This document shows, piece by piece, positions 55,001-57,437 of a DNA stretch of 64,000 nt. Location: the NCBI RefSeq assembly GCF_013167455.1, contig NZ_CP038328.1. One strand, 5' to 3'. The stretch is from Escherichia coli O157:H7 (GTDB lineage Bacteria; Pseudomonadota; Gammaproteobacteria; Enterobacterales; Enterobacteriaceae). Within the stretch, counting starts at the first letter, position 1; every line of letters begins with the position of its first letter. The position numbers were made by a program.

Positions 55001-57437
55001 CTTTGTCAGAGGATCGACTTATTTGCGGCGAGGCATCATTCGTAACAGAGTATTATCTTTCTGAATGTAGTGATGAAAGAGTGCTGCGCCAGCGTGAGCT
55101 ACGATTAAAAAGTAGCCTATATTTGCCCAGGTTTCGTGAATATTTTTTATCAGTGCTTTAATTTCGCTGTTTGGGGTAACAAAGGGAGACACATTGAAAC
55201 CAAGGAAACTCCACGATTTTCCACTGTAAGCCATCAAAGCAATCCCCAGCAGAGGAAGCGCAAGGAAGGTTATATAAAGCATGATGTGCATTAGCGAAGC
55301 CGCTTTCATTTGCCAGGCAGGTGGCGGTGGCACAATAGAAGGATCACTATAACGGTGTTTTATAATCAGGCGTGAAAACATTAACACCCAAACGAATATA
55401 CCCGCATTGTAATGTGTTTCTCGCATCAGCAGATAAGTACTACTACCTTTAGGAAACCAGCCACGGAGTTCCATCGCGGCATAGGTTATTGCAACGAAAA
55501 GCAGCGTTATCCAATGTAAATAAATTTGAGTTTTTGAGAATCGGTTCATTTTTGTAGCTCCTGTAATTTTCACAGTCAAGCTATCCCACGAACCTTAAAA
55601 ATTCCTTATACAGATGTGGTTTTAAGAATTTGTTATTTAAAAAATTGATAGTGCACATTGTAACCAGCCAATATAAGCAATGGCGTGAGCACAGGTATCT
55701 TTCTCTGTTGGCCGTATTGTGTATGGAATCCGTTATTGGTTAACTCAATGCGGGTTAGCTTATTAATATACAGACACGTCATAGTGATGAGCGTGTCTGT
55801 AGCTAGCTTGCGTTCAGTGGCGTTTGTGGATGGACCAGTGGCAGTTATGATGACATACTAAAGCGGCATCGAGGCGTTATCATGAGAATACTCAATGAGA
55901 CATCATTTCCTCGACCACTTCTTCGCTACTCAACTGATATGGATAATACGTTGGCCAGTTTTCCATTTCATTTAATAAAGATTGCTGTGAATCATTACCC
56001 ATAAAAATGTGAAAATGAGATGATTTTCGTGGTGCAATTATATGATCGCTAAATTGTATATATTTAGGGGCTTTGCTTTCAGGATCTTTACATTCGAATA
56101 AGTAACGAACGCCTTTCTTGCCTGATTTATAGGTGAGTATTTTGTATCCATCGTAATCATATTTACAGGATGTTGTTTCATTATTTCTATGGAATTCAAC
56201 AATGCCGTCCTCAATGCCAATCATCTCGATATCTGTTGCATAGCCTTTGTGATAATAATCTTTAATTTCAGCAAATGTTTTAGTTTTATCTGCATCCGCT
56301 TTCTTCTGAAAGACGGGGGCAAGTTTGCCACTTTGCAGTAAAGGATAAACGGATTGCCAGACTCCATCCCAGTCACTGAGCGTTCGGTTTTGTACATTGG
56401 CATCATCAAAAACACCATTAGCAGCTTTTTGTTCGACCTCTGTTAAGGGTTTGCCGTGTGAGTGATGACCATGCGAAAAGGCAGGAGCGCTAACAATAAA
56501 GACACCTAAAGCAACAGCCAGTTTGTGAAGACGAATCGCCAAAACAGTTTCCTCCAGAGTCATTGTATATGATGTGTAATGTTATATTGTAACATATGAC
56601 AAAATGCAACAACTCTTAGGAGATGAGAGCATAGTTTTCTCAGGTGTACTTATCTATCTTATTGAAATAAAATGAATTATGTTGATAATTTGAGGTTGAT
56701 GACAAACGATACATAACCTGATGTGATCTGCGTAGGCCGGATAGGGCGCTCGCGCCACATCCGGCAGGGATAACGCGTACTTTGTCGGCAATATGAAGTT
56801 ATACAGATAATTTGTTGTGAACCTGCTTGCGTAACCGGTTAAAAAGGGAACGCGACTTCTTATACCGTAAGGCTAAAAGCAGTACAGCCAGCCCAGCGTA
56901 GATGAGCGGCTGCGGTGAAATAATCTTCACTGACCACAGATAATGTATTGGGGCCAGGATCGCGACAAGATAGACGAAATTATGCAACTGTTGCCAGTGC
57001 TTGCCGAGTTTTCGCTGCATCGCCTGGGTTGAAGTAAACGCTAAAGCAAGCAAAATAATCCAGCTGATAATTCCTAACGTTAAATAAGGCCGGGTAATTA
57101 ACTCCTTGCCTAATAACGCCAGATTATTCACGCCCAGCTCCAGCAATGCGTAACTGGTTAAATGCAGTGTCGCCCAGGCAAAGCACCATAAGCCTAACAG
57201 GCGGCGTGTGCGTATCAATAACGGCTGTTTTGCGTAGCGTGCCAGAGGTGTGATTAACAAGGTCGCCAGCAAAAATTTCAGTGCAGTGCGACCGGTAAAA
57301 TGCTGAATATCTTTCACCGGATCGGCACCCAGTCCACCGTGATTGATCGCCCAGACCAGCCAGAGAAACGGCAACAATCCGGCAAGATGCAGGCAAACTT
57401 TCAGCCATGTCACCTGTTTTGCTGTCAGACGCATTCA

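Follow-up and report, generated by a model that had tools for sequence, protein, structure and literature searches.

Four Zur operators have been characterized in Escherichia coli, those of znuABC, ykgM/L31p, zinT and pliG. At the zinT (yodA) promoter of strain K-12 (PzinT), Zur protects approximately 30 bp and binds cooperatively as two dimers, with an apparent dissociation constant (Kd-app) of 0.053e-18 M^2, and it represses zinT 984-fold in vivo (PMC4219657). zinT is among the most tightly Zur-repressed E. coli genes. In the two-dimer recognition model put forward in the same study, each dimer reads an RNNNYxxxRNNNY element, and the crystal structure of Zur bound to DNA, together with the known operators, gave rise to a 20-bp pattern, TGWNAYRWTATAWYRTNWCA (PMC4219657). 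A 23-bp consensus for the gammaproteobacteria, GAAATGTTATANTATAACATTTC, is also quoted there. In E. coli O157:H7, ZinT is induced in zinc-poor medium and repressed by zinc, and it accumulates even in the presence of zinc when zur is deleted; the protein is reportedly released outside the cell (PMC3053223).

We analyzed a stretch of 64,000 nucleotides from E. coli O157:H7 (the window), in which an earlier note had described a Zur-box-like palindrome at 56576-56598. The palindrome is present. We consider it almost certain that it is the already characterized Zur operator of the zinT (yodA) promoter, with the occlusion mechanism proposed below and a TTG codon as the start of the gene.

The zinT locus and its Zur box

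The minus strand carries msrP, msrQ, zinT and yodB in this order. The 801-bp stretch around the Zur box is 100% identical to many O157 chromosomes, where zinT and msrQ are annotated. The YodA/ZinT chains in the PDB match the product of zinT with an E value of 1e-147. These solved chains have 193 residues, the first of which are HGHHSHG, corresponding to residue 24 of the form translated from TTG, and the stretch of approximately 23 residues that precedes them is consistent with a cleaved signal peptide. Compared with the K-12 and PDB sequences, ZinT in the window has His for Tyr at precursor residue 6 and Ala for Asp at residue 74 (in KLAPVFQ). ZinT translations 100% identical to that of the window were also seen on short contigs from metagenome-assembled genomes labelled Bacillota and Bacteroides, which are probably mis-binned Enterobacteriaceae. 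The coordinates of the features discussed here are listed in Table 1.

Table 1. Features of the zinT locus, in positions of the window
Feature	Position	Strand	Remarks
zinT (yodA) CDS	55892..56542	-	216 codons and stop; from the annotation
Presumed ZinT signal peptide	56474-56542	-	Codons 1-23
zinT start codon TTG	56540..56542	-	RefSeq CDS start in 9/9 strains
Shine-Dalgarno sequence GGAGGA	56550..56555	-	7 nt before TTG
Upstream in-frame ATG	56561..56563	-	Polymorphic, without Shine-Dalgarno sequence, most likely unused
Core operator for two Zur dimers	56575..56594	.	Exact match to TGWNAYRWTATAWYRTNWCA; central TATA at 56583-56586
23-bp Zur box	56576..56598	.	Register of the gammaproteobacterial consensus GAAATGTTATANTATAACATTTC; + strand reads GTAATGTTATATTGTAACATATG
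Candidate -10 hexamer TATAAC (predicted)	56581..56586	-	Inside the Zur box; read from sequence
Alternative extended -10 TGtTACAAT (predicted)	56594-56586	-	Read from sequence
Candidate -35 hexamer TTGCAT (predicted)	56604..56609	-	Read from sequence

A REP-like, GC-rich palindromic element at 56735-56800 separates the msrQ stop (56799) from the zinT promoter. Rfam returned only a sub-threshold match to the REP-type family naRNA4 at these positions (33.7 bits compared with a gathering score of 59.5). An RNA element at the zinT operator is not supported, this sole match being below threshold and approximately 140 nt away. Distally, at 56610-56720, the msrQ-zinT intergenic region is very polymorphic for E. 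coli, with 34 of 111 columns variable among nine strains, and over a 241-bp stretch identity falls to approximately 90% in many genomes.

The 20-mer TAATGTTATATTGTAACATA is found at 56577-56596. It contains an imperfect palindrome centred on 56587, in which ATGTTA (56579-56584) faces TAACAT (56590-56595) and seven of eight pairs are complementary. Such symmetry is unremarkable, as 38 17-mers with at least seven of eight pairs occur in the window compared with approximately 25 in shuffled sequences, and palindromicity alone is uninformative as evidence for a Zur box. In contrast, the match to the Zur motif is far beyond chance. All 20 positions of the structure-based 20-mer TGWNAYRWTATAWYRTNWCA, which has an RNNNYRNNRYNNYRNNNY skeleton and a central TATA, agree at 56575-56594 without a single mismatch, for approximately 2e-4 exact matches expected per window from base composition. 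When the 23-bp pseudo-palindrome GAAATGTTATA-N-TATAACATTTC was laid over 56576-56598, 18 of its 22 specified positions agreed. The full 23-mer consensus had no match in the window at up to three mismatches, because the zinT site has four; the 19-mer core of the consensus and the structure-based pattern were used in its place. With two mismatches, the zinT box is the only match to this 19-mer core in 64 kb, compared with 0.00 expected at up to two mismatches. Comparison with the consensus thus upheld the box proposed in the earlier note. A second, overlapping register of TGWNAYRWTATAWYRTNWCA is present at 56580-56599 with two mismatches, and there is a further partial palindrome around CATATG (56593-56598). 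Both fit the approximately 30-bp Zur protection published for PzinT.

The sequence of the zinT operator is not printed in the text of PMC4219657, and we equated the zinT site with the published operator because it is the unique exact match to the pattern built from that operator. From 56564 to 56597, and so over the entire 20-bp motif, the K-12 sequence is identical to that of the window, and the published K-12 result on Zur therefore transfers directly.

Nine diverse E. coli lineages were aligned to look at the conservation of the box. Positions 56579-56597 were invariant, and the only variable box positions were 56598, at its outermost edge, and 56578, where the pattern has an N. Two of the 24 box positions varied compared with 41 of 154 in the rest of the intergenic region (Fisher p = 0.07); lower polymorphism of the box within E. 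coli is only suggestive in this sample of nine strains. Instead of this contrast, we used allele counts over 5,426 complete genomes and a comparison across genera. The exact operator 30-mer occurs in 4652 of the 5426 complete E. coli genomes, while the commonest allele of an adjacent, partly overlapping 30-mer just downstream occurs in 2101. Beyond E. coli, 80 zinT loci of Enterobacterales were fetched, 77 of which were long enough to analyze. A Zur-type box (up to two mismatches, from -150 to +20 of zinT) was found in 61 of these 77 species compared with 11 of the 770 tiles taken from these loci as controls. With the start taken as the codon best supported by a Shine-Dalgarno sequence, the gap between box and start over the 61 species had a median of 32 nt (interquartile range 28-34, range 16-158). 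The zinT loci of Proteus, Morganella morganii and some Providencia have no recognizable box within 200 nt, and Serratia sp. DD3 harbors four zinT-like copies on four contigs, all with the same upstream sequence, which lacks the Zur pattern. In these bacteria, zinT may be regulated differently or its box may have diverged.

The translation start of zinT

The TTG at 56542 is the start of zinT. This assignment follows from its Shine-Dalgarno sequence, the RefSeq annotation in nine strains, the absence of the upstream ATG from most E. coli lineages, and the conservation of the TTG and of its spacing of approximately 32 nt to the box across genera. The earlier note had described the TTG as supported by a ribosome-binding site and the ATG at 56563 as lacking one, and the anti-Shine-Dalgarno duplex energies agree with this: -9.3 kcal/mol for the TTG (7-nt spacer, GGAGGA at 56555-56550), a value reached by only 1.3% of random window positions, compared with +2.7 for the ATG. 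The GGAGGA is invariant in the nine E. coli lineages. In all nine strains, even those with the ATG, the RefSeq start is at the position corresponding to 56542. Across 27 species, among them members of Escherichia, Salmonella, Atlantibacter, Serratia, Enterobacter and Yokenella, the homologous codon is a TTG with GAGG before it, and more distant genera have an ATG at the position homologous to the zinT TTG. N-terminal sequencing of mature ZinT cannot settle the start, because the chains begin at residue 24, the signal peptide apparently having been cleaved.

The same note had placed the Zur box between the two candidate starts, overlapping the zinT start region, and had drawn from this position an argument for the TTG. 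As zinT is on the minus strand, upstream corresponds to higher coordinates, and the box lies upstream of both starts without overlapping either of them. It is separated from the ATG by 12 nt (23-mer) or 11 nt (20-mer core) and from the TTG by 33 or 32 nt, respectively. Shortly before the ATG, the reading frame is closed by an in-frame TAA located within the box (56584-56582). With the box on the upstream side of both starts, the position argument of the note does not favor either codon: the TTG was right, but not the reasoning from a box between the two codons. The only positional argument for the TTG that holds is comparative, namely the conserved box-to-start spacing of approximately 32 nt.

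It is very unlikely that the ATG at 56563 is a real or additional start in the O157-type lineage, which would give a 223-residue precursor beginning with MTLEETV. Downstream of the TAA, this in-frame codon is the first that could serve as a start, and with transcription predicted to begin at approximately 56574 some 11 nt of mRNA would precede it. The ATG is also common: of 5426 complete E. coli genomes, 2101 (39%) have the exact 30-mer with the ATG allele and 1374 the one with the K-12 allele (TTA), the rest having other alleles, including ATA. However, the ATG shows no Shine-Dalgarno pairing, and it is found in only three of the nine lineages, the other six having TTA (five, K-12 included) or ATA (one). 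It is never annotated in RefSeq, even in the strains that have it. A start there would leave an 11-nt gap to the box, outside the 16-158 range of the 61 species. It would also extend the protein by seven residues, MTLEETV, two of which are glutamates, so that the n-region of the signal peptide would go from a net charge of +2 to 0. A lowered n-region charge is unfavourable for Sec signal peptides. We give an equally slim chance to the idea that, in the approximately 39% of E. coli genomes concerned, the ATG might yield a minor precursor with a longer N terminus (MTLEETV...) or draw initiation away from the TTG; if so, the ATG allele would represent a lineage-specific adjustment of the amount or export of ZinT. 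In the O157-type sequence, both the operator and the TTG start can be annotated confidently, and the upstream ATG is a common, non-conserved polymorphism that offers no basis for extending zinT.

Regulator and proposed mode of repression

Promoter hexamers at zinT were identified by visual inspection and are given as predictions. The candidate -35 hexamer TTGCAT is 17 bp upstream of TATAAC and invariant in the nine E. coli lineages, and a TTGnnn located 15-17 bp upstream of TATAAC recurs at zinT in Salmonella, Yokenella, Enterobacter and others. A strict promoter scan reported no minus-strand promoter over the zinT box, because its rule accepts only -10 hexamers whose sixth base is T, which excludes TATAAC. 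No mapped transcription start of zinT/yodA was found in the papers searched, by exact-sequence searches or in the supplements of a genome-wide start-site paper. According to these predictions, the Zur box would overlap the -10 element and the transcription-start region. It is from the sequence that we infer the promoter hexamers, the transcription start and steric occlusion at this promoter.

When zinc is sufficient, two dimers of zinc-loaded Zur would bind cooperatively to opposite sides of the double helix, one reading the RNNNYxxxRNNNY element at 56576-56588 and the other that at 56581-56593, and the two dimers together would cover approximately 30 bp. The covered stretch would include the predicted -10 element (TATAAC at 56586-56581 or TGtTACAAT at 56594-56586) as well as the predicted transcription start (approximately 56573-56580), and RNA polymerase would thereby be excluded, which is the usual mode of Zur repressors (PMC6103462). 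Upon zinc depletion, Zur would lose its regulatory zinc and leave the DNA, and zinT would be transcribed. The mRNA would have a leader of approximately 30-38 nt and be translated from the TTG at 56542 by means of the GGAGGA 7 nt upstream. The resulting 216-residue precursor would lose its N-terminal signal peptide of approximately 23 residues on export to the periplasm, where ZinT helps ZnuABC to acquire zinc.

Could the site be the operator of another Fur-family regulator, such as Fur itself, instead of Zur? We regard this as even less probable than a start at the ATG. An older yodA study, by Puskarova et al. in 2002, is said to have reported that fur, soxS and oxyR affect the expression of yodA, and Fur boxes are, like Zur boxes, AT-rich palindromes. 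However, the only match in the window to the 19-bp Fur consensus GATAATGATAATCATTATC at up to three mismatches is at 32570-32588, with none in the zinT promoter. The central TATA present at the zinT site has been described as Zur-specific and absent from the Fur box (PMC4219657), and both Zur binding and the effect of a zur deletion on zinT have been published (PMC4219657, PMC3053223). The Fur-box reading of the zinT site was rejected on the lack of a consensus match and on this TATA. As for the distant match, CAAAATGATAATAATTATC (32570-32588, minus strand) corresponds to the Fur-box consensus with three mismatches. Approximately 30 nt away, upstream of the gene for the small subunit of a prophage terminase, is a cohesive-end sequence of the lambda type, GGGCGGCGACCT (32620-32631). 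The stretch 32570-32631 is the cos region of a lambdoid prophage, and a Fur site there is unlikely.

Least credible of all is a chance AT-rich palindrome in the promoter that binds no regulator: although palindromes of such quality are common and the box sequence doubles as -10-like hexamers, an exact match to the Zur pattern is expected only approximately 2e-4 times in the window, 61 of 77 species have the box at a conserved distance from the gene, and EMSA and RT-PCR data published for the identical K-12 sequence refute this reading.

The earlier note was right to propose zinc-dependent repression of zinT by Zur, which is supported by the motif match, the identity with K-12 and the published data on K-12 and O157:H7. 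The zinT Zur box is real and conserved, but already known and ordinary. It is a textbook element of bacterial zinc homeostasis, with little import beyond correct annotation.

Comparison with known operators

The locus shares with K-12 PzinT the sequence at 56564-56597, the zinT gene itself, the msrQ-zinT-yodB neighbourhood and the TTG start. It differs from it by flanking substitutions at 56598 and 56599, on the distal side, and by substitutions downstream at 56563 and 56561, which create the in-frame ATG of the O157-type allele. None of these substitutions is at a position read by Zur.

With the Fur box (GATAATGATAATCATTATC), the zinT site shares an AT-rich inverted repeat, a Fur-family dimer of dimers and an overlap with a promoter, which is predicted in the case of zinT. 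It differs from the Fur box in having no match to the consensus at three or fewer mismatches and in its central TATA, which has been described as specific to Zur.

The znuA and znuCB promoters form a divergent pair under one operator, whereas the zinT operator controls a single promoter. The znuA-znuCB operator, which was crystallized with Zur (PDB 4MTD and 4MTE), has the same TGWNAYRWTATAWYRTNWCA pattern with a central TATA and is also bound cooperatively by two dimers (PMC4219657). Zur binding is approximately 150-fold tighter at the zinT operator (Kd-app of 0.053 compared with 8.2 e-18 M^2), and repression amounts to approximately 980-fold for zinT compared with approximately 7-fold for znu (PMC4219657).
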